Assembly: GCF_044324875.1 (NCBI RefSeq)
Contig: NZ_CP172185.1
Length of the DNA: 64,000 bases
Reading direction: 5' to 3' (one strand)
Source of the DNA: Escherichia coli
GTDB taxonomy: Bacteria; Pseudomonadota; Gammaproteobacteria; Enterobacterales; Enterobacteriaceae
In this document: piece by piece, positions 2,284-38,175 of the stretch
How the letters are laid out: each line of letters opens with the position of its first letter
Numbering within the stretch: the stretch's first letter is position 1
The notes under the pieces: generated by a model
Databases searched by the model: none
Told to the model about the DNA's origin: nothing
The model's input: only the letters and a program-made list of their open reading frames with translations
Made by a program: the position numbers and the translations under genes

Positions 2284-3492
2284 ATGTCCCGCGTGTCGCA
2301 GGCGAGGAACCTGGGTAAATATTTCCTGCTCATCGATAATATGCTGGTCGTGCTGGGGTTCTTTGTTGTCTTCCCGCTGATCTCTATCCGCTTCGTTGAT
2401 CAAATGGGCTGGGCCGCCGTCATGGTCGGTATTGCCCTCGGCCTACGCCAGTTTATTCAGCAAGGTCTGGGTATTTTCGGCGGAGCAATTGCCGACCGCT
2501 TTGGTGCCAAACCGATGATTGTTACCGGTATGCTGATGCGTGCCGCCGGATTCGCCACAATGGGTATCGCCCACGAACCGTGGCTACTGTGGTTTTCATG
2601 CCTGCTTTCGGGACTCGGCGGCACGTTGTTTGATCCGCCGCGTTCGGCGCTGGTGGTGAAATTAATCCGTCCACAGCAGCGTGGTCGTTTTTTCTCGCTG
2701 TTGATGATGCAGGACAGTGCCGGTGCGGTCATTGGCGCATTGTTGGGGAGCTGGCTGTTGCAATACGACTTTCGCCTGGTCTGCGCCACAGGGGCAGTTT
2801 TGTTTGTGCTGTGTGCAGCGTTCAATGCGTGGTTGTTACCGGCATGGAAACTCTCCACCGTACGCACGCCCGTTCGCGAAGGCATGACCCGCGTGATGCG
2901 CGACAAGCGTTTTGTCACCTATGTCCTGACGCTGGCGGGTTACTACATGCTGGCTGTACAAGTGATGCTGATGCTGCCAATTATGGTCAACGACGTGGCG
3001 GGCGCGCCCTCTGCCGTTAAATGGATGTATGCCATTGAAGCGTGTCTGTCGTTAACGTTGCTCTATCCTATCGCCCGCTGGAGTGAAAAGCATTTTCGTC
3101 TGGAACATCGGTTGATGGCTGGGCTGTTGATAATGTCATTAAGCATGATGCCAGTGGGCATGGTCAGCGGCCTGCAACAACTTTTCACCCTGATTTGTCT
3201 GTTTTATATCGGGTCGATCATTGCCGAGCCTGCGCGTGAAACCTTAAGTGCTTCGCTGGCAGACGCAAGAGCTCGCGGCAGCTATATGGGGTTTAGCCGT
3301 CTGGGTCTGGCGATTGGCGGCGCTATTGGTTATATCGGTGGCGGCTGGCTGTTTGACCTGGGCAAATCGGCGCACCAGCCAGAGCTTCCGTGGATGATGC
3401 TGGGCATTATTGGCATCTTCACTTTCCTTGCGCTGGGTTGGCAGTTTAGCCAGAAACGCGCCGCGCGTCGTTTGCTTGAACGCGACGCCTGA
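2284..3492 (+). CDS. mdtH: MFS multidrug efflux transporter MdtH
   Basis: Track ORF 2254..3492 trimmed to ATG 2284 ([19 protein letters not shown]...), giving 402 aa. Multi-TM MFS sequence matching recalled MdtH. Confidence 0.93.
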
Positions 3493-7026: not shown

Positions 7027-8145
7027 ATGAAATACGATCTCATCATTATTGGCAGCGGTTCCGTAGGCGCTGCCGCCGGGTATTATGCAACCCGTGCCGG
7101 TTTAAACGTGCTAATGACCGACGCCCATATGCCACCACATCAACACGGCAGCCACCACGGCGATACGCGATTAATTCGCCATGCTTATGGTGAAGGCGAA
7201 AAGTATGTCCCGCTGGTTCTCCGCGCGCAAACGCTGTGGGATGAACTCTCCCGCCACAACGAAGAAGATCCCATTTTTGTACGCTCTGGCGTCATTAACC
7301 TTGGCCCGGCTGATTCCACATTTCTCGCCAACGTCGCCCACAGCGCCGAACAATGGCAACTCAACGTTGAAAAGCTCGATGCGCAAGGGATTATGGCCCG
7401 CTGGCCGGAAATACGCGTCCCGGACAACTACATCGGCTTATTTGAGACTGATTCCGGTTTTTTGCGCAGCGAACTGGCGATTAAAACCTGGATCCAACTG
7501 GCGAAGGAAGCGGGCTGTGCGCAGCTGTTCAACTGCCCGGTCACCGCAATTCGTCATGACGATGATGGCGTAACTATTGAAACGGCTGACGGTGATTATC
7601 AGGCGAAAAAAGCGATTGTCTGCGCGGGAACATGGGTAAAAGACCTGCTCCCGGAGCTGCCTGTCCAGCCCGTACGCAAAGTATTTGCCTGGTATCAGGC
7701 CGATGGTCGCTATAGCGTGAAGAATAAATTCCCGGCGTTTACCGGTGAACTGCCCAATGGCGATCAATATTATGGTTTTCCGGCAGAAAACGACGCGTTG
7801 AAGATTGGCAAACATAACGGAGGCCAGGTTATCCATTCAGCGGATGAACGTGTTCCGTTTGCGGAAGTGGTCAGCGATGGTTCGGAAGCCTTCCCGTTCT
7901 TGCGCAATGTATTGCCGGGTATCGGTTGCTGCCTGTACGGCGCTGCCTGCACCTATGATAATTCGCCTGACGAAGATTTTATTATCGATACCCTACCCGA
8001 CCACGATAATACACTGCTCATTACCGGCCTGAGTGGGCACGGTTTTAAATTTGCGTCAGTTTTAGGGGAAATAGCTGCCGATTTTGCGCAAGACAAAAAA
8101 AGCGATTTTGATTTGACGCCATTCAGGCTTTCCCGCTTCCAATAA
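7027..8145 (+). CDS. solA: N-methyl-L-tryptophan oxidase
   Basis: 372 aa. FAD-binding GSGSVG at the N-terminus. Matches recalled SolA. Confidence 0.96.
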
Positions 8146-8153
8146 TCATCATT

Positions 8154-8180
8154 ACGGCCTCCAGAATGAGGCCGTTTTTA
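8154..8180 (+). terminator. rho-independent terminator after solA
   Basis: ACGGCCTC-cagaat-GAGGCCGT followed by TTTTT. Confidence 0.7.
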
Positions 8181-8306
8181 CAGGAGTATTTAATGCGTCG
8201 GCTGTTGCACTATCTCATCAATAATATTCGCGAGCATCTGATGCTTTATCTTTTTCTCTGGGGATTGTTGGCAATTATGGATCTGATCTATGTGTTTTAT
8301 TTTTAG
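8166..8306 (+). CDS. yceO: small membrane protein YceO
   Basis: Below the track cutoff. 46 codons, [46 protein letters not shown], as I recall for K-12 YceO. An alternative start is ATG 8193. Confidence 0.6.
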
Positions 8307-8566
8307 TTTTCCGCACTGACATAAACTGACAAATATTTAATCTCCCTTTCATTTAGCGTGAAAAATTGAATGAGATTATTCCTGCTTCTACAGCACTCAC
8401 CAGACATCTCTGATGCTGAACCCACTAAACTTATGAAGATTCTTTCATTATTAATTCAAAATTATTGAAATAAAAATAAATATCATTCAATTTGTTATTT
8501 TTGTGTTGCAATTCATTCTCCGACACGCCATTTTCTTTCTCTCGCAAATTCGTTTTGGATGCACTT

Positions 8567-9133
8567 ATGTCATTCACAAATACCCCTGAACGCTATGGTG
8601 TTATATCTGCGGCCTTCCATTGGCTAAGCGCAATTATTGTCTACGGCATGTTTGCTTTAGGTCTGTGGATGGTCACGCTCAGTTATTACGATGGCTGGTA
8701 TCACAAAGCACCCGAACTGCATAAAAGCATCGGTATTTTGTTAATGATGGGGCTGGTTATTCGCGTTCTGTGGCGCGTCATATCTCCACCGCCGGGTCCG
8801 CTGCAGAGTTATTCGCCCATGACTCGTCTTGGCGCAAAGGCTGGACATCTCGCATTGTACTTATTGCTGTTCGCCATCGGCATCAGCGGCTATCTGATCT
8901 CAACTGCCGATGGTAAACCGATCAGCGTTTTTGGCTGGTTTGACGTCCCCGCGACCCTCGCCGACGCTGGCGCACAGGCTGACTTCGCCGGTGCCCTGCA
9001 TTTTTGGCTCGCGTGGAACGTCGTAGTACTGTCCGTTATGCATGGATTTATGGCCCTGAAGCATCATTTCATCGATAAAGACGACACTCTGAAGCGCATG
9101 CTGGGAAAGTCGTCATCTGACTATGGAGTATAA
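8567..9133 (+). CDS. yceJ: cytochrome b561 family protein YceJ
   Basis: Track ORF 8492..9133 trimmed to ATG 8567 (MSFTNTPERYGVISAAFHWLSA...). 188 aa, 4-TM b561 type. Confidence 0.9.
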   Translation: MSFTNTPERYGVISAAFHWLSAIIVYGMFALGLWMVTLSYYDGWYHKAPELHKSIGILLMMGLVIRVLWRVISPPPGPLQSYSPMTRLGAKAGHLALYLLLFAIGISGYLISTADGKPISVFGWFDVPATLADAGAQADFAGALHFWLAWNVVVLSVMHGFMALKHHFIDKDDTLKRMLGKSSSDYGV

Positions 9134-14183: not shown

Positions 14184-18366
<4,183 letters not shown>

Positions 18367-29940: not shown

Positions 29941-30028
29941 GGTGAGGTGTCCGAGTGGCTGAAGGAGCACGCCTGGAAAGTGTGTATACGGCAACGTATC
30001 GGGGGTTCGAATCCCCCCCTCACCGCCA
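29941..30028 (+). tRNA. serX: tRNA-Ser (anticodon GGA)
   Basis: 88 nt, GGTGAGGTGTCCGAGTGG...TTCGAATCCCCCCCTCACCGCCA. Long variable arm, anticodon loop CUGGAAA, encoded CCA. Confidence 0.95.
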
Positions 30029-30180: not shown

Positions 30181-31023
30181 CTATACTGCCAGCATGTCAG
30201 GATAGTGTCTGACGATAATATCATTCAGTCTGTCAACCAGTTCCGGTTTCCTGAACGTGATATGCGCGGAGCCTTTCCTGAAGTATCTGATGCTGAACAT
30301 CTCATCCTCATAGCATGCTTCACCCTGAACGGACCGGATGTGCTCATCCAGACGAATGAGGATATTGTCCCGGTCAGTGGGTATGGGTTTACCGCTGAAC
30401 AGATACAGTATCCTTTCCAGGTCGGCAAGCCGCCCGGCCTGCGGACCATGGTTCAGACCAAATCCCCACCAGTCCCATTTCACCAGGTTGTTGAGGATAA
30501 TCTTACTGCCGAATTTACAGGGTGACCCGCTGTTGTGCGTCCGGCTCAGTCCTCTGAAGAGGTTGATGACGCCCCGTTCAGCCATTTCATCCCTGTTACG
30601 GTGCAGTTGTTCAGACGTACTCAGGATATTCGCTTCGCTGATTTCCGGAAAATTATCCTCCTCCAGTGAACGGTACCATTCATCACGCGCCTGTGCATCC
30701 ATCAGACTCAGCATCCCGGAGCGTTGCATCAGGTCACGCCAGATTTCACGGTCAAGGTTCCGGGTGATGGCTTTCATTGCGGTTTCCGGTTTTTCCATCA
30801 GCCAGCAGCCACAGCGAAAATCCTGTTTCACGGCCCAGTCCCGGGCCGTTTTACCTCCGATGCTTTCTGTCATTACTGAGATTTCTGCCAGTTGCCGGAT
30901 AAGCCTTTCGGTTTGTTGCAGTGCTTCATTCCGTACCGTCACAACGTGCCGGATACTGGTTGAGCAGATAACGTCCGTATGTCCGTTAAGCGTTTCCGGA
31001 CGGGAGACTGTGATATCAGACAT
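30181..31023 (-). CDS. DUF4942-type protein (often annotated as a methyltransferase-like island protein)
   Basis: 280-aa ORF at the distal end of the CP4-type module. Family assignment comes from recollection of CP4-like island annotation, not from a search. Confidence 0.7.
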   Translation of the reverse strand: MSDITVSRPETLNGHTDVICSTSIRHVVTVRNEALQQTERLIRQLAEISVMTESIGGKTARDWAVKQDFRCGCWLMEKPETAMKAITRNLDREIWRDLMQRSGMLSLMDAQARDEWYRSLEEDNFPEISEANILSTSEQLHRNRDEMAERGVINLFRGLSRTHNSGSPCKFGSKIILNNLVKWDWWGFGLNHGPQAGRLADLERILYLFSGKPIPTDRDNILIRLDEHIRSVQGEACYEDEMFSIRYFRKGSAHITFRKPELVDRLNDIIVRHYPDMLAV

Positions 31024-31119: not shown

Positions 31120-31317
31120 TCACAGGTTCTGGTGCTGAAGCTGCAGCTGGCGCAGGGTGCGGATATCCTCCCTGGCCTGTTCGATACAGGGCAACAGTGC
31201 TGCCGAATCCGTTTTATCCTCATCGTTGTCGAAGATAATGCAGGAGCCGCAGTCGATATTGTCCTGCAGCCACGCAATCAGAATATCCGGTGCTGTTTCT
31301 GTGGTTAATGATTTCAT
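31120..31317 (-). CDS. DUF957-type small protein
   Basis: 65 aa from ATG 31317 (MKSLTTETAPDILIAWLQDNIDC...QLQLQHQNL), inside track ORF 31120..31704. Recalled as a conserved CP4-island gene. Confidence 0.65.
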   Translation of the reverse strand: MKSLTTETAPDILIAWLQDNIDCGSCIIFDNDEDKTDSAALLPCIEQAREDIRTLRQLQLQHQNL

Positions 31318-31336: not shown

Positions 31337-31825
31337 TTACCAGTCGAAAGTGGGAAAACCCGGCAGACATTCAGCGCCGGCATCCAGATGAATGAGACTG
31401 ACGCCATAACGCCGGATGAGAGTGACAACCAGACGACGAAACGTTTTTGACAGACCCAGGCGTTTAAGCCGCAGAGCCGGGTACGACCACGCATCAGTAC
31501 GTAACAGATATCCGCTGCCTGTAAAATGAATCCATTCTGATTCGCCGTTGTCATTCGTCTGATGCGACAGCGAGTACAGCCAGGCATTGTCCTGCTCCGT
31601 GATATGTGCGGTACTGCAGCGTATGCCGGTAAGGGCCGCAAATGGTGGCATGCAGTCTGCTGAGGTCCGGTCAGATTCATCAGCAACACGAAGGGAACAG
31701 CCATTATCGCAGACCACGTTAATCAGTTCAGCGAGATTAACACCATCGACGTCAGCGACAATGCGCCCCATGTTCAGTGCCTGTACGTTAACGCTGTCGG
31801 CTTCCAGTGTCAGGGACAGTTTCAT
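31337..31825 (-). CDS. YeeW-like / DUF5983-type protein
   Basis: 162 aa. Its ATG overlaps the cbtA-like stop (ATGA at 31822-31825), suggesting translational coupling. Confidence 0.7.
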
Positions 31826-32199
31826 GGTTTCACCTCACAGTGTTTACCCAGGGTGATGTTGTTCACCATTCTGTAGTGGCTGCGGGTCATCAGGCCGGTC
31901 GCCCGGCGGGCCCGGAGAATATCAATGCTGCTGATTAACTGCGATGAAGCTCCTGCGCTGAATCCCGGCTGGTCGGTACGCACCAGCGCGTATTTTTCCA
32001 CAAGAAAGTTCACCGCATCACACAGTGAAATACCCGCCTCAATATGCTGCTCAATCACACGTTCATCGGCGAACGGTGTGTCATTCAGCGTGAGGCCGTA
32101 GTGCTGGTCCAGCAGCCGGGTGAGCAGTGTCTGCCAGATTTCAACCGGAGACGGGCAGCGCGATGTTGCCCGTACGTGTGTGTCGGGGAATGTTTTCAT
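31822..32199 (-). CDS. cbtA: CbtA/YeeV-family type IV toxin
   Basis: Track ORF to 32325 trimmed to ATG 32199. 125 aa, [43 protein letters not shown]..., closely matches recalled YeeV. Confidence 0.9.
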
Positions 32200-32257: not shown

Positions 32258-32623
32258 TCAGGGTGTTGCCGGTGTCGGATAAATGGCGATATACACGTAA
32301 CCACAACTGCCGAGGGTGTCGGCATCGCAGGTCAGCCCTTTCGCATACAGTGTCACGGTATGCTGATGGCGGGGACTGAGTTCACCGCTGGTGAGCATGA
32401 GTTCCAGCTGTTTCATCAGCAGCGGAAAGGCCTGGTCCAGGTGGTACGCATCTGCGTCGCTGAACCGGCCTCTGATACCGGCGCGGTCTGCAAGGTAATG
32501 CAGGCGGTTACCCTCCTGCACCAGACGGGCACCGAAACAGGGCGTCACGGTGCAGGGCAGCCCCCACCAGGGGCGGTCGCTGTTGTCGTCAGGATGCGTT
32601 GTCCCGGTGAGTGTGTCTGACAT
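32258..32623 (-). CDS. cbeA: CbeA/YeeU-family type IV antitoxin
   Basis: 121 aa, [50 protein letters not shown]..., closely matches recalled YeeU. Confidence 0.9.
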
Positions 32624-32673: not shown

Positions 32674-33330
32674 TCAGCCGGCGCGCAGACCGGCTTCGGT
32701 GAAGGTGTATCCGTTGATGAGAAGGGCCTCATCCACGGCGTCGTCTGAGGTCAGCCAGTCGTACTCGTTTTCCAGTTGACTGTATAACCAGAAGGCAAGG
32801 TCCCGCAGGGCGTCACAGACAACGGTTTCCGCGCTGGCTGTCATTGCCTGTCCGGTCGGACTGTCCCGGGTGACGGTGATATCCATGCTGTACGGATGGC
32901 AGTAGTGTCCCCGGTGGCGGATTTCAGCCTGAAGCTGCCGGAAGTTACGCTTCTGCACCGCCTGCAGGGCATCCGCGATACGATGAAGCTCACGGTCCTG
33001 CGGGGCATATTCCCTGATTTTCCGGGGTGCCGCTGGCTGCCAGCGCCAGCGTCCTTCAAAACAGGCTCCGTCCCCCTGGCTGCAGAATCCGCTGAACCAG
33101 ATGCACGGCTCTTCCATAAACCTGCCGTTGCTGAGCCGGATAACACGCTGGCGGAGGGCAATCCCGACAATCTCACAGACCGTCCTGAAGTCCTCATACA
33201 CGTTTTCATACCAGTTGCTGTCAGCATGATGCTGACGGTACCATTCACGGGCCTTCTCCCGTGCTGTGGCGGAAAGTTCATCCGGCGTATACACGGTGGT
33301 GATGATAATTCTGCTCATCCGCATCTCCAC
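32674..33330 (-). CDS. hypothetical protein (218 aa; no family recognised)
   Basis: Long clean ORF with neighbour-like composition, wedged between the DUF987 and cbeA-like genes. Start may be ATG 33318 (MSRIIITTVYTPDEL...). Confidence 0.65.
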   Translation of the reverse strand: MEMRMSRIIITTVYTPDELSATAREKAREWYRQHHADSNWYENVYEDFRTVCEIVGIALRQRVIRLSNGRFMEEPCIWFSGFCSQGDGACFEGRWRWQPAAPRKIREYAPQDRELHRIADALQAVQKRNFRQLQAEIRHRGHYCHPYSMDITVTRDSPTGQAMTASAETVVCDALRDLAFWLYSQLENEYDWLTSDDAVDEALLINGYTFTEAGLRAG

Positions 33331-33334
33331 TGAC

Positions 33335-33556
33335 TCAGTTCAGGGTGACGCTCATCAGCCGGACATACGGGCCAAAACTGTCCTTCCGGCGTTCGGCAAA
33401 CACGGCAAGCACACCGGGGATATCCTGCACTTCACGACCGGTATACGCTTCAGCACTGCCGTGCCAGCGGTATTTACCGGTACAGAACGGAAAAAGACGG
33501 GATGACGGATACTGACGGTGAACGCGCATGGCTTCACCACGGGTGATGATTTTCAT
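33335..33556 (-). CDS. yeeT: YeeT/YkfH/YpjJ-family protein (DUF987)
   Basis: 73 aa, MKIITRGEAMRVHRQYPSSRLFPFCTGKYRWHGSAEAYTGREVQD..., near-identical to recalled YeeT. Confidence 0.88.
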   Translation of the reverse strand: MKIITRGEAMRVHRQYPSSRLFPFCTGKYRWHGSAEAYTGREVQDIPGVLAVFAERRKDSFGPYVRLMSVTLN

Positions 33557-33645: not shown

Positions 33646-34122
33646 TTAAAGCAGACCGTGTTCCGCAAAGGAGAACACCCGGCTGCCACCGACTATCAAA
33701 TGGTCCGGTACCCGGATATCCACCAGGGCCAGTGCCTGTACCAGACGTTCAGTGATAAGGCGGTCTGCCTTACCGGGTGTGACCTCACCGGACGGATGAT
33801 TGTGCGCCAGCACCACGGCAGCGGCATTGTGGTACAGGGCGCGTTTAACCACCTCCCGGGGATGCACTTCCGTGCGGTTGATGGTGCCGGTGAAGAGGGT
33901 TTCACCGGCAATCAGCTGATTCTGGTTGTTCAGGTACAGCACCCGGAACTCTTCCCGCTCCAGTCCCGCCATGTGCAGAATCAGCCATTCCCGTGCCGCA
34001 TGCGTGGAGGTGAAGGCCACGCCGGGTTCATGAAGATGGCGGTCCAGGGTTTTCAGGGCCCGCTGAATGAGGCTGCGCTCGCCGGGCGTCATCGCGCCGG
34101 GCAGAAAGGAAATCTGTTGCAT
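33646..34122 (-). CDS. yeeS: RadC-like JAB-domain protein (YeeS/YkfG/YfjY family)
   Basis: Track ORF to 34164 trimmed to ATG 34122. 158 aa with the JAMM motif HNHPSGEVTPGKAD. Confidence 0.88.
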   Translation of the reverse strand: MQQISFLPGAMTPGERSLIQRALKTLDRHLHEPGVAFTSTHAAREWLILHMAGLEREEFRVLYLNNQNQLIAGETLFTGTINRTEVHPREVVKRALYHNAAAVVLAHNHPSGEVTPGKADRLITERLVQALALVDIRVPDHLIVGGSRVFSFAEHGLL

Positions 34123-34133
34123 AACCTCACTCC

Positions 34134-34607
34134 TCAGTCGATGATGCGCATAATGGCGCTGCATTCCGGATGCTGCAGGGCGTAATCCCGCAGCCGGTAA
34201 TAATGGACCGTCATGGCATAATGCTCCGTACGGCAGGCGTGATGACTGTAGGCCATCAGGCAGGCGGCAATGCCGGCGGCTTCAGGGCTCATTTCCGCGC
34301 GGTTGCCGTTCATGGTGTTAAACAGTGCCCATGTTTCGTCATCATCGTCACCCGGTTCGGGAGCCATAAATGCGCCGCCGTTGTTCAGGGTGTACATATT
34401 CCAGATACCCCCACTGTAGTCTTCACACAGACGGTCCATCCAGCCGAAGATTCGGGGCTCAAGGGTCACCCACTGCGGAATGAGGCCAAAGTGCTGCGGC
34501 CAGAAGCTGATGCGCTGTTCGTCAGGCACTGGGCTGGCAACCAGCTGAGGTGGATTATTCCCGGATGCAGTGGTTGCGGAAACAGAGTCATGCGAAACCG
34601 TTTTCAT
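34134..34607 (-). CDS. antirestriction protein (YfjX/YafX/KlcA-ArdB-like family)
   Basis: Track ORF to 34709 reads through into the IS end. ATG 34607 gives 157 aa (MKTVSHDSVSATTASGNNPPQLV...). Family recalled from CP4 islands. Confidence 0.8.
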   Translation of the reverse strand: MKTVSHDSVSATTASGNNPPQLVASPVPDEQRISFWPQHFGLIPQWVTLEPRIFGWMDRLCEDYSGGIWNMYTLNNGGAFMAPEPGDDDDETWALFNTMNGNRAEMSPEAAGIAACLMAYSHHACRTEHYAMTVHYYRLRDYALQHPECSAIMRIID

Positions 34608-34623: not shown

Positions 34624-34765
34624 TGCAAAATGGCATCTGAATCGATCGCAGTTTGGCATTCGAATCGATCATGATTTGGCATCCATCTCCGATCACAGTT
34701 TGGCATCACAATCGATCACGATTTGGCATGCTTCCGATCATTGATTGGCATCCTGCCAGTCACTC
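34624..34765 (+). repeat. six tandem ~23-bp subterminal repeats at the IS21-family left end
   Basis: TGGCAT cores at 34631, 34654, 34677, 34701, 34724 and 34746 (spacing 22-24 bp), each followed by a (C)GATC(A) motif. Three related units at 37185-37262 lie in inverse orientation. Confidence 0.85.
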
Positions 34766-34825
34766 CGGGAATTAACTCTTTTCACCACAGTCTCCATTGC
34801 CGTGTTTAAACCAGTGGAGACGTCA

Positions 34826-36391
34826 ATGTCCAGAAAGAGAAAATCCAGGAGCACTATGGAAACCTGTTTTAAGATCCTTCAGCTCAAGTTCGACAAGAAG
34901 CTGACTAACCGTTGTATCGGACTGACGTTACACATCAGCGCCTCAACCGTTTTTGAGGTTCTTGCCCGCTTCAAAGCCTCTTCTCTGTCATGGCCATTAC
35001 CTGCTGATATATCCCATGACACGCTGGAGAAACTCATTTTTCCGCCCAAAGACACCTTTGCATCAGAGCTTGTAATGCCTGACATGTTGTACTTCGATAC
35101 GGAAATGAGAAAACCAGGTGTGACGCGGCAACTGTTGTGGATGGAATACAAGGCACAGGCGGGTAACAAAGCGATGGGATACTCGCACTTCTGCCGTTGC
35201 TACCGGGAGTGGAAAAAAACGCGACGTCTCTCCATGCGCCAGGAGCATCGTGCCGGCGAAAAGCTTTTTATCGACTTCTGTGGTCCTACGGTTCCTGTTA
35301 TTAATCCGGACACCGGTGAGATACGCCGCGTGGCAATCTTCGTGGCCGTAATGGGGGCGTCCAACTATACCTACGTTGAAGCGTGCGAAGGTCAGGACAT
35401 GATGTCATGGTTAAATGCCCACAGCCGTTGCCTGACCTTCCTGGGCGGCGTACCGAAGCTGCTCATCCCCGATAACCTCAGAAGCGCAGTGAAAAAGGCC
35501 GATCGATATGAGCCTGTCATCAACGACAGTTATCAGGCACTGGCTGAGCACTATGGCACGGTTATCATCCCGGCCCGACCACGCAAACCTAAAGATAAAC
35601 CAAAAGCAGAAAACGGCGTCCTCATCGTTGAACGATGGCTTCTTGCCCGCATCCGTAATGAAACCTTCCACACGCTCAGGGCGCTGAATGCGCGCCTTAG
35701 GGAGTTACTGACAGACATGAATAACCGGCCAATGAAGGGGTACGGCAATCAAACCCGTGCAGAACGCTTCCGCATACTGGATGCGCCAGCACTCTCTCCG
35801 CTGCCTCTGGCACCTTATGAATACACGGAATACAAAGCTGTGAAGGTTGGCCCTGACTACCACGTTGAATATGCCCGTCACTGGTACTCCGTTCCACACG
35901 AACTGGTCGGTCAGCGTCTGTCACTGAAGGCGGGGCAGTCGGTGGTACAGCTCTGGCACAAGGGGCAGTGTGTGGCGCAACATCCGCGCAGCACACATGA
36001 ATATAAACACACAACCAATCCGCTTCACATGCCAGAGCGCCACCGGCAGCACGGGACATGGACACCGGAACGCCTGATCGAGCAGGGAAAACGTACGGGC
36101 CCGTCCACAGGCCGGGTGGTTGAATCCATGCTGAAGGCAAAACCCCATCCGGAACTGGCTTATCGTGCAGTTCTGGGGCTGCTGGCACTTCAGAAAAAAT
36201 ACGGCCCGGAACGGCTGGAAAAGGCCTGTTACGTTGCCCTGCACTATAACGCCCCTGACAGACGCTTTATCGACAATCTGCTGCGTCACCATCGGGAGAA
36301 CCTGGAGCTTCCATTATCCCGCCAGGGCGAACAACATCCGGCATATGCTTCAGAGCATGAAAACCTGCGTGGTCCGGGCTACTACCACTGA
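34826..36391 (+). CDS. istA: IS21-family transposase IstA
   Basis: 521 aa from ATG 34826. N-terminal HTH and a DDE region (…LFIDFCGPTVPV…LIPDNLRSAV…). Confidence 0.9.
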   Translation: MSRKRKSRSTMETCFKILQLKFDKKLTNRCIGLTLHISASTVFEVLARFKASSLSWPLPADISHDTLEKLIFPPKDTFASELVMPDMLYFDTEMRKPGVTRQLLWMEYKAQAGNKAMGYSHFCRCYREWKKTRRLSMRQEHRAGEKLFIDFCGPTVPVINPDTGEIRRVAIFVAVMGASNYTYVEACEGQDMMSWLNAHSRCLTFLGGVPKLLIPDNLRSAVKKADRYEPVINDSYQALAEHYGTVIIPARPRKPKDKPKAENGVLIVERWLLARIRNETFHTLRALNARLRELLTDMNNRPMKGYGNQTRAERFRILDAPALSPLPLAPYEYTEYKAVKVGPDYHVEYARHWYSVPHELVGQRLSLKAGQSVVQLWHKGQCVAQHPRSTHEYKHTTNPLHMPERHRQHGTWTPERLIEQGKRTGPSTGRVVESMLKAKPHPELAYRAVLGLLALQKKYGPERLEKACYVALHYNAPDRRFIDNLLRHHRENLELPLSRQGEQHPAYASEHENLRGPGYYH

Positions 36392-36407
36392 CAGAAGGAA
36401 CAACAGT

Positions 36408-37163
36408 ATGAGTGATAACCTGTTAAACAAACTGACCCAACTGAAACTCCCGGCGATGGCCGGGAGCCTGATACGGCAGCGGGAAACGCCTCAGACCTAC
36501 GACGAACTGTCGTTCGAGGAAAGGCTGACGCTGCTGGTTGATGACGAGCTTCTGAGCAGGGAAAACAGCCGTGTGGCACGGTTGAGAAAAAATGCCGGCC
36601 TGAAATACCAGGCAACACCGGAAGGGCTGCGCTATCCGGCCTCAAGAGGTCTGCGGGCTGAACAGATGAGAGAACTGCTGAACGGCCACTACATAACCCA
36701 CAGGAAAAACCTGCTGATAACCGGTCCGACAGGATGTGGCAAGAGCTGGATAGCCAATGCGCTGGGCGAACAGGCATGTCGACAGAAACACAGCGTCCGG
36801 TACTGTAGAACCGGGCGATTACTGGAACAACTGGCTCAGGGACGTGTTGATGGCAGCTGGCTGAAATATCTGAAACAGTTGCAAAAAATACAGGTTCTAA
36901 TCCTGGACGATCTGGGGCTGGAACAGTTAAGTAACGCCCAGTGTAATGACCTTCTGGAGCTCATAGAGGATCGTTACGGACAAAGCAGCACGATAGTGGT
37001 AAGCCAGTTCCCGGTAGATAAATGGCATGGTCTGATGGAGAACCCAACAACAGCAGATGCCATCCTGGACAGACTGGTACATAACTCACACCGAGTGGTC
37101 CTTCAGGGAGAGTCACTGAGGAAAAATCCCCCGGTAGTGGAAAGCAGCGAAAAAACGCGTTAA
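36408..37163 (+). CDS. istB: IS21-family ATP-binding helper IstB
   Basis: 251 aa from ATG 36408. Walker A GPTGCGKSW, Walker B VLILDDLG. Confidence 0.92.
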   Translation: MSDNLLNKLTQLKLPAMAGSLIRQRETPQTYDELSFEERLTLLVDDELLSRENSRVARLRKNAGLKYQATPEGLRYPASRGLRAEQMRELLNGHYITHRKNLLITGPTGCGKSWIANALGEQACRQKHSVRYCRTGRLLEQLAQGRVDGSWLKYLKQLQKIQVLILDDLGLEQLSNAQCNDLLELIEDRYGQSSTIVVSQFPVDKWHGLMENPTTADAILDRLVHNSHRVVLQGESLRKNPPVVESSEKTR

Positions 37164-37356: not shown

Positions 37357-38175
37357 TCAGCGCAGGCTCTCCAGCAGCGTTTCCGTCATCACCCACAATG
37401 CGCGGTTGAGCTTAATGTCGGTGTCAATGCTGTGAATGGCCCGGGTGTGGATACGTTTTCCTTTTGCACTGCGCCCCTGAAGACCACCCTTGAGCATATT
37501 CTCCTGGATGGTCTGATAAGCACTCCACAGGTCCTTACCGTAATCCTCCCGGCGTCGTGGCGTCAGAATGTCAGCGGTGGTGACGGGCTGATGTTCGTCA
37601 CCATAACGGTAAGTCAGGGCGGCCTGTGCCAGCGCTTGGCGAGCCGGTGGTGGTAAAATCAGCGACTGCATGGCATCACGCTTCTCCTCAATCCGGTCAA
37701 AAACCCCCACCACTTCGTAAGCCCCTTCGATGACCCTGTCCACCACGTTTCCCCGGTGTGGCACACGCACCTCTCCGAGAGACTGACCGCAGACGCACCC
37801 GTTCTGACACACGAACCGGAAGTAACCCGGCAGCATCTGGTAGCTGGAGGTACCGTCATGGGAGTTGAGCAGAATGATTTCCGGGACATGCTGCCCGTTT
37901 ATCTCCCCGTCACGGCGCAGACGCAGCATGTGCTTTGTGTATCCCCGACGTCCCGGGTCCCGCACGCGGGTCTGGCAGGCAAAGAAGGGCTGAAAGCCTT
38001 CCCGCTGCAGGCTTTCCAGCACGGTAATGGTGGGGATGTATGTATAGTTCCGGCTCCGGGAGGTGTGCTTATCTTCCCCGAAAATCCCGGGCACATGGTG
38101 CATCAGTTCTTCATGTGTCAGCGGACGGTCACGGCGTATCTGGTTCGCATAACCAAAACGACTGGCTAATCGCAT
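37357..38175 (-). CDS. DUF932 / UPF0380 protein (YfjQ/YafZ family)
   Basis: 272 aa, MRLASRFGYANQIRRDRPLTHEELMHHVPGIFGEDKH.... Family recalled from CP4-6 and CP4-57. Confidence 0.85.
   Translation of the reverse strand: MRLASRFGYANQIRRDRPLTHEELMHHVPGIFGEDKHTSRSRNYTYIPTITVLESLQREGFQPFFACQTRVRDPGRRGYTKHMLRLRRDGEINGQHVPEIILLNSHDGTSSYQMLPGYFRFVCQNGCVCGQSLGEVRVPHRGNVVDRVIEGAYEVVGVFDRIEEKRDAMQSLILPPPARQALAQAALTYRYGDEHQPVTTADILTPRRREDYGKDLWSAYQTIQENMLKGGLQGRSAKGKRIHTRAIHSIDTDIKLNRALWVMTETLLESLR

Follow-up and report, generated by a model that had tools for sequence, protein, structure and literature searches.

What is the gene that lies between the DUF987 (YeeT-like) gene and the CbeA-type antitoxin gene in a CP4-type island of Escherichia coli, how did it come to occupy that slot, and what might it do for the element that carries it? 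The question arises from a stretch of 64,000 nucleotides of E. coli DNA (hereafter, the window), for which an initial annotation had reported an open reading frame of 218 codons at 32674-33330, had assigned it to no recognised family, and had described it as an extra gene inserted into the module. The frame is present at these positions on the minus strand, a strand not named originally, and both peptide segments quoted from it are found in its translation. We use the label X for the gene within this frame, which encodes a 214-aa protein of the DUF8835/PHROG 5162 group and occupies 32674..33318 on the minus strand, stop codon included; this delimitation draws on the reading frame, the PGAP start, the PHROG 5162 match and the homologues.

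The length first given is correct for the frame opened by GTG (218 codons, 32674..33330), but probably not for the gene. The true start is likely to be the ATG at 33318, with the GTG lying four codons too far 5', because a GGAG is situated 6 nt 5' of this ATG (33328-33325) and because both PGAP and the homologues, which begin with MSRII, place the start there. Read from this ATG the product has 214 residues and the N-terminus MSRIII. The four preceding codons GTG-GAG-ATG-CGG (33319..33330, minus strand) are probably untranslated, and the GGAG within them would be the ribosome-binding site. The distances to the neighbours are as originally stated, with 4 nt between the frame and the DUF987 stop codon (33335-33337) and 50 nt between its end and the CbeA start (32623). 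The GC-rich, neighbour-like composition was likewise correctly observed: X has 58.6% GC and a GC3 of 69%, compared with 60.4% GC for the RadC-like gene, 60.7% for the CbeA gene and a window mean of 49.9%.

Pairwise comparisons of the window copy of X with other copies from E. coli, Salmonella and Mixta yield dN/dS values that are mostly 0.10-0.35, and alphaproteobacterial proteins (from Roseibium, Salipiger, Methylosinus and others) are ~60% identical to X over its full length. X is thus to be regarded as a real gene, with conservation far exceeding that of a chance reading frame, and the pattern of substitution argues for purifying selection on a functional product. One copy, from Escherichia ruysiae (8001-8645 of its locus, L020), shows a dN of ~1.0 against all others and 87% identity over the best tblastn segment; a compensated frameshift or a local misalignment is the likely cause of this anomaly.

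X sits in a CP4-type island at a tRNA-Ser gene. Directly upstream is the 73-aa DUF987 gene (33335..33556, minus strand; PF06174, E 1.7e-38), and 50 nt downstream is the gene for a 121-aa CbeA/YeeU-family type IV antitoxin (32258..32623, minus strand; PF06154, E 1.1e-54), both neighbours being those recognised in the initial annotation. These are followed by genes for a CbtA-family toxin (31822..32199, minus strand; PF06755, E 3.8e-59, with the start taken from PGAP in the same island), a DUF5983 protein (31337..31825, minus strand; PF25638 and PF19419), a DUF957 protein (31120..31317, minus strand; recognised from position and annotation in the corresponding island of strain TUM9803, with the frame open) and a DUF4942 protein (30181..31023, minus strand; PF13708, E 1.5e-60). 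The last of these is the final island gene before tRNA-Ser (GGA) (29941..30028, plus strand; ARAGORN, with the same layout in TUM9803), which adjoins the island end and beyond which lie ghrA and ycdX. On the other side of DUF987 are a RadC-like JAB-domain gene (33646..34122, minus strand; PF04002, E 7.8e-44; PGAP start), a KlcA/ArdB-type antirestriction gene (34134..34607, minus strand; PF03230, E 7.3e-37; PGAP start) and the DUF932 gene (37357..38175, minus strand; PF06067, E 1.1e-51), the first of the conserved block.

In the window an insertion sequence parts DUF932 from the remaining block; in the same island of TUM9803 the spacer between KlcA and DUF932 is only 104 nt. Two plus-strand frames, at 34745-36391 (~548 aa) and 36165-37163 (332 aa), split the window island between the KlcA-like gene and DUF932, and, judging from the translations alone, we take this pair (34745-37163) to resemble istA/istB of the IS21 type. 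Neither terminator-like nor convincing promoter-like sites were found between X and its neighbours; the short intergenic gaps and the lack of a terminator-like site suggest that X is co-transcribed with them, a single transcription unit being the simplest reading.

The question of family can be answered only in part by the standard domain collections. X has no match in Pfam-A (2025 copy) or NCBIfam, and none among the PADLOC anti-phage defence models at E<=1, and to this extent the family was rightly called unrecognised. It is, however, matched by PHROG 5162, a family of unknown function, with E 1.4e-34 (residues 7-214 against profile positions 3-195 of 201). Moreover, identical DNA in strain TUM9803, in the same island and at the same tRNA, encodes WP_045145966.1, which RefSeq names DUF8835; this assignment is made through the RefSeq name on 100% identical DNA, as the local Pfam copy holds no DUF8835 model. 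The family traits are present: X is a stand-alone protein in the range of ~200-220 aa with the SQGDGAxFEG hairpin and the C-terminal NxYxFTExG motif. No significant Pfam family was detected as an extra domain in 59 diverse family members, longer ones included.

The exact protein is present on 997 contigs of a large collection, 1452 homologues were recovered, and in a search of all cluster representatives at 50% identity a match at E<=1e-3 was obtained for 3446 clusters, of which 412 reached E<=1e-30. X can hence be placed in DUF8835/PHROG 5162, a family that is catalogued but uncharacterised; literature searches with DUF8835, the older name, the PHROG identifier and the WP accessions returned nothing relevant. 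Since the family is catalogued and very common, the presence of X at this locus is no discovery.

That older name requires comment, as it labels X an antitoxin and has been widely propagated in RefSeq, where newer annotation uses DUF8835. It is a label in the generic style of COG names, attached in the literature to unrelated RelB/StbD-type proteins, such as the RelB of an ETEC plasmid; a second paper in which it occurs gives it as a bare entry in an annotation list. A protein properly so named would be a small antitoxin of ~80-100 aa, encoded beside its cognate toxin; X has 214 aa, and most of its loci are without an adjacent toxin. X gave no Pfam match to the CbeA/YeeU family PF06154 even at E 0.01, the family that its neighbour matches so strongly, and no sequence similarity to CbtA by Pfam. 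The name is therefore unsupported, and the toxin-antitoxin pairs that recurrently adjoin X may be one source of it.

How X came to lie in its slot was investigated by megablast against 5426 complete E. coli genomes. X is present in 1967 of them, in 2830 places and up to 8 times per genome, and 1942 genomes have a copy that covers at least 80% of the gene; full-length 214-aa forms prevail among the E. coli homologues. The contiguous trio DUF987-X-CbeA was found in 1928 of the 1942 genomes with full-length X. The DUF987 gene occurs in 12911 places in 4801 genomes, and therefore ~22% of DUF987 modules carry X. Rather than being an extra gene, X is thus common in exactly this position, a finding that the initial annotation had itself named as one that would speak against its proposal.

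The same annotation had noted that in modules such as yeeS-yeeT-cbeA-cbtA the antitoxin directly follows DUF987, and all three K-12 modules do lack X; the spacers of such modules reverse the direction of the event that it proposed. The yeeT-cbeA spacer of K-12 contains GATGAGCAGAATTATC, which is identical to the start of X at 16 of 16 positions, lies in collinear position, and covers a base proximal to the ribosome-binding site and the first five codons. The spacer runs on as GCCACTACCGG, reading MSRIIATT, as does a known variant of X (P0025) at its N-terminus, and then jumps to sequence ~18 nt past the X stop codon, so that the first ~26 nt of X are retained; the spacer, in which this remnant keeps the start codon, is at 3040-3112 of the locus L010. 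In a second type of spacer, seen in strain A1_181, it is the last ~117 nt of X that are retained, in an alignment 89% identical to the window, and for O157:H7 strains the match length of 741 nt by itself suggests this same 3'-remnant spacer. Of the 5426 genomes, 3113 were matched by a junction-specific query for the K-12-type scar and 3074 by one for the 3'-remnant scar, with 4597 and 4592 matching places, respectively, as upper bounds; together with the 2830 intact copies, and with the scars taken at these upper bounds, ~93% of all DUF987 places are covered. No trace of X was found in the spacers of CP4-6 and CP4-57 (YafW/YfjZ type).

Because one end of the gene, 5' or 3', survives in the X-less spacers, X is ancestral to the modules of the CbeA/YeeU type and was deleted from them at least twice, rather than inserted. 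It is an ancestral member of a co-oriented CP4-type block of the order DUF932-KlcA-RadC-DUF987-X-CbeA-CbtA-DUF5983-DUF957-DUF4942, from which the direct DUF987-cbeA order of K-12 arose by deletion of X. The familiar yeeS-yeeT-cbeA-cbtA order of CP4-44 is a deletion derivative, and work on the K-12 module has therefore been done without one ancestral gene.

Two or more deletions, with deletion alleles commoner than the intact gene, might indicate that X is by now a decaying passenger without current function in E. coli; truncated and fused variants do exist, and the island in the window is already interrupted by an insertion sequence. We give this reading hardly any weight: the intact copies show the low dN/dS values (mostly 0.10-0.35) given above, 214-aa copies prevail in E. 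coli, with 1942 genomes holding at least 80% of the gene, and conservation across bacterial classes is strong.

In all enterobacterial loci examined X adjoins a CbeA gene, on one side or the other. In Citrobacter the order is DUF987-X-CbeA-CbtA, and in a divergent E. coli variant it is X-CbeA-76aa-CbtA, with a 76-aa frame interposed. In Mixta it is DUF987-CbeA-X-CbtA, and in Salmonella DUF987-CbeA-CbeA-X-CbtA, with two tandem CbeA paralogues; in Salmonella and Mixta loci (L103:4094-6081, L021:7260-9086 and L045:7630-9085) the frame upstream of X overlaps its start by 4 nt. Furthermore, several E. coli assemblies encode in-frame X-CbeA fusions of 342-343 aa (P0006, P0011, P0015, P0017, P0019-P0024 and P0027-P0031; P0024 is on a 4.66-Mb contig), with the junction ...TEAGLRAG-LPEDFIVSDK... 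and the X stop codon lost, a short spacer deletion being the apparent cause. The constant adjacency in enterobacteria and the fusions hint at a link between X and CbeA. Tripartite toxin-antitoxin-chaperone (TAC) systems have a third gene within the toxin-antitoxin operon, and by analogy X may be an accessory third component of CbeA/CbtA, whether in a regulatory or chaperone role or as a partner of CbeA. Besides the fusions and the gene orders just described (X-CbeA in E. coli and Citrobacter, CbeA-X-CbtA in Mixta, CbeA-CbeA-X-CbtA with the 4-nt overlap), this proposal could draw on toxin-antitoxin pairs that directly follow X in other bacteria.

The contexts beyond the enterobacteria bear on this proposal directly. 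When one genome per species was scanned, 492 stretches encoding the protein were obtained, of which the best 80, almost all from Alphaproteobacteria, were studied. In 69 of these best 80 of 492 loci the start of X is overlapped by 8 nt by an acidic 138-aa frame (pI 4.3; hereafter p138; for example L002:7592-8008, L013:11589-12008 and L107:19589-20008). The same 80 loci have a ~1440-aa SNF2/'strawberry notch' protein downstream of X in 64 cases and a ~700-aa ParB-N protein upstream in 56; also found near X are DUF7146-toprim (56), YAcAr (45), DUF6878 (36), ArdC (32), DUF932 (19), RadC (13) and KlcA (12). CbeA/CbtA occurs in only 3 of the best 80 of 492 loci, and at least 64 of them have no toxin-antitoxin pair beside X.

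The slot directly after X varies, and may be empty or occupied by DUF4326, KlcA, GNAT or a toxin-antitoxin pair, the pairs belonging to three unrelated families, CbeA/CbtA, MbcA/RES and AbiEi/AbiEii. Since there are three such families, each with its own antitoxin, the slot has the appearance of a cargo hotspot rather than of a partnership. Representative loci on alphaproteobacterial integrative and conjugative elements (ICEs) and plasmids are L061:8703-10311, L013:12704-13803, L107:20711-21810, L049 and L087.

With this evidence in hand, an accessory role in CbeA/CbtA appears unlikely, the MbcA/RES and AbiEi/AbiEii pairs after X notwithstanding. At least 64 of the best 80 of 492 loci are without a toxin-antitoxin neighbour, CbeA/CbtA being present in 3, and the diversity of the pairs is that of a hotspot. 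More than 3000 E. coli genomes retain CbeA/CbtA after deletion of X. An AlphaFold2 model of a natural X-CbeA fusion gave no usable interface (pLDDT of 22-49 in the CbeA half, pTM 0.56). The system was, moreover, characterised in K-12, which lacks X (PMC5371832 and PMC5624674). As K-12 does without X, and as thousands of genomes keep the pair without it, CbeA/CbtA would not require X.

In the alphaproteobacterial elements p138 and X are predicted, from their overlap, to be translationally coupled. Two identities for p138 were tried and rejected: it is not a divergent CbeA (hhalign probability 0.07%; Pfam scans of 35 members empty) and it is not related to DUF987 (hhalign probability 0.6%). Nor did Pfam reveal a toxin-family match in the 35 members, and the window contains no p138 homologue. 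The tight two-gene cassette with its 8-nt overlap, along with the wide propagation of the older RefSeq name, could be taken to mean that X is an antitoxin, either of p138 or of a host toxin. This is very improbable, as X matches no Pfam or NCBIfam antitoxin family, the label is a generic one also given to unrelated RelB/StbD-type proteins and has been replaced by DUF8835 in newer RefSeq, the E. coli modules carry X without p138, and p138 itself is very acidic (pI 4.3) and without a match to any toxin family.

The enterobacterial DUF932-KlcA-RadC-DUF987-X-TA block and the alphaproteobacterial SSB-DUF932-RadC-...-p138-X-(TA)-SNF2 block (TA, toxin-antitoxin pair) have gene content and order in common. 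The conjugative plasmid pP73C illustrates the latter, with the order repC - ParB - ... - SSB - DUF932-like - RadC - DUF6878 - ... - p138 - X - MbcA/RES - strawberry notch - toprim - ... - mobC - relaxase. In this one plasmid ~18 kb separates the X block from mobC-relaxase, and the block is on the side that faces away from the relaxase. Among plasmids, 108 records contain homologues, and 41 of these are typed conjugative; among phages, 59 records do, and the jumbo Caulobacter phages carry the gene within their terminal repeat. In the Caulobacter phage CcrBL9 (L102) the homologue is at 17132-17788 of the record, within the 22-kb terminal repeat and among ~25 small hypothetical genes, and is therefore present in two copies per genome, one at either end.

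The structure predicted for X offers a further line of evidence. AlphaFold2, supplied with a 32-sequence alignment, returned an alpha/beta model with a long C-terminal helix (pLDDT 86.7, pTM 0.80). A Foldseek search of this model against the PDB, a check that had been recommended at the outset, found nothing at E<=0.001, sequence and profile searches of PDB chains gave nothing significant, and the structural matches in BFVD are uncharacterised phage proteins only. The fold is thus confidently predicted, with no relative detected in the PDB. The family is acidic: the median pI is 4.8, and the net charge is close to -15. Near-invariant residues, down to homologues of 38% identity, include E14, L15, D43, G52, the Q81-G-D-G-A-x-F-E-G hairpin, D108, H112, H141, W177, Y179, N202, F206 and G210; over 59 sequences reaching to 37% identity, conservation is 90% or higher at Q81, G82, D83, G84, A85, F87, G89, N202, F206 and G210. 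A CCHH zinc site (C72, C86, H135 and H141), hinted at by close homologues, was considered and rejected, C72 being Cys in 19 of 59 sequences and C86 alternating with Ser.

Such a set of conserved polar residues (E14, D43, Q81-G-D-G-A, E88, D108, H112, H141 and N202) in a compact, confidently predicted alpha/beta fold, taken together with ~60% identity across bacterial classes, would also suit an enzyme, for instance a metal-dependent hydrolase or transferase whose substrate would be DNA, nucleotides or a small-molecule signal. We nevertheless consider this quite improbable, since no enzyme family was matched in sequence or structure and since the apparent zinc set C72/C86/H135/H141 is not conserved in distant homologues.

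The explanation that we tentatively prefer, though at somewhat less than an even chance when taken as a whole (that is, the family, the ancestral block, the deletion and the role together), casts X as a mobile-element accessory protein that acts in the phase of entry or establishment, and not as an antitoxin. X would be a soluble, acidic alpha/beta protein, made with other early or establishment genes upon arrival of the element in a new cell; its target would be conserved, and either of the host or DNA-associated, and its action there would aid the establishment of the incoming element. That X is a real gene of this family, how common it is, where it sits, the deletion scars and the synteny beyond the enterobacteria are shown. 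When it acts, on what target, and whether by binding or by catalysis, are the parts of this explanation that we infer. Leading regions of plasmids are reported to be enriched in antirestriction, SSB, ParB/methylase-type, toxin-antitoxin and many uncharacterised families (PMC11541004), and on plasmids X is surrounded by SSB, antirestriction, ParB and toxin-antitoxin genes; it is these gene classes around X and the location in phage terminal repeats that lead us to an entry-phase role.

No similarity was found between X and the known antirestriction proteins (ArdA, ArdB/KlcA and ArdC; PF07275, PF03230, PF08401 and solved structures), and none of the characterised proteins of antirestriction or anti-defence is homologous to it. 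The ~60% identity between gamma- and alphaproteobacterial members is unusually high for a counter-defence protein and, with the conserved residues, would also fit an enzyme. More speculative, and in our estimation doubtful, is the broader conjecture that DUF8835 constitutes a new-fold entry-phase factor, for counter-defence or host take-over, shared among proteobacterial integrative elements, conjugative plasmids and jumbo phages, directed at a highly conserved host target and possibly tied functionally to CbeA-type proteins in enterobacteria.

The DUF8835 family is large, with more than 3400 clusters at 50% identity, has a confidently predicted fold without a relative in the PDB, and is unusually conserved. 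These features, and its presence in putative establishment regions of ICEs and plasmids as well as within the terminal repeats of phages, make it a reasonable candidate for functional screens. By-products of the present study are the evidence for a deletion scar behind the K-12 order, the recognition that the 'antitoxin' name lacks support and a context-based hypothesis for a large mobile-element family with no structural match.

Three known kinds of system invite comparison with X. With the CbeA/CbtA (YeeU/YeeV) type IV module of CP4-44 it shares its context, the same operon-like block; it differs in being unlike either protein in sequence and in occurring mostly without them outside the enterobacteria, and K-12, like more than 3000 genomes, keeps the pair but lacks X. 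With the TAC systems it has in common its place as a third gene in a toxin-antitoxin operon, but X has no SecB-like fold, its order relative to the pair varies, and the pair is retained where X is not. The third comparison is with the leading-region and anti-defence genes (ArdA, ArdB/KlcA, ArdC, PsiB, SSB and orphan methyltransferases; PMC11541004). The products of such genes are typically much less conserved than X; points of likeness are its small size and acidity, the phage homologues in terminal repeats, and its genomic company, namely KlcA, ArdC, SSB, ParB-N, RadC, DUF932 and toxin-antitoxin pairs on ICEs and conjugative plasmids.
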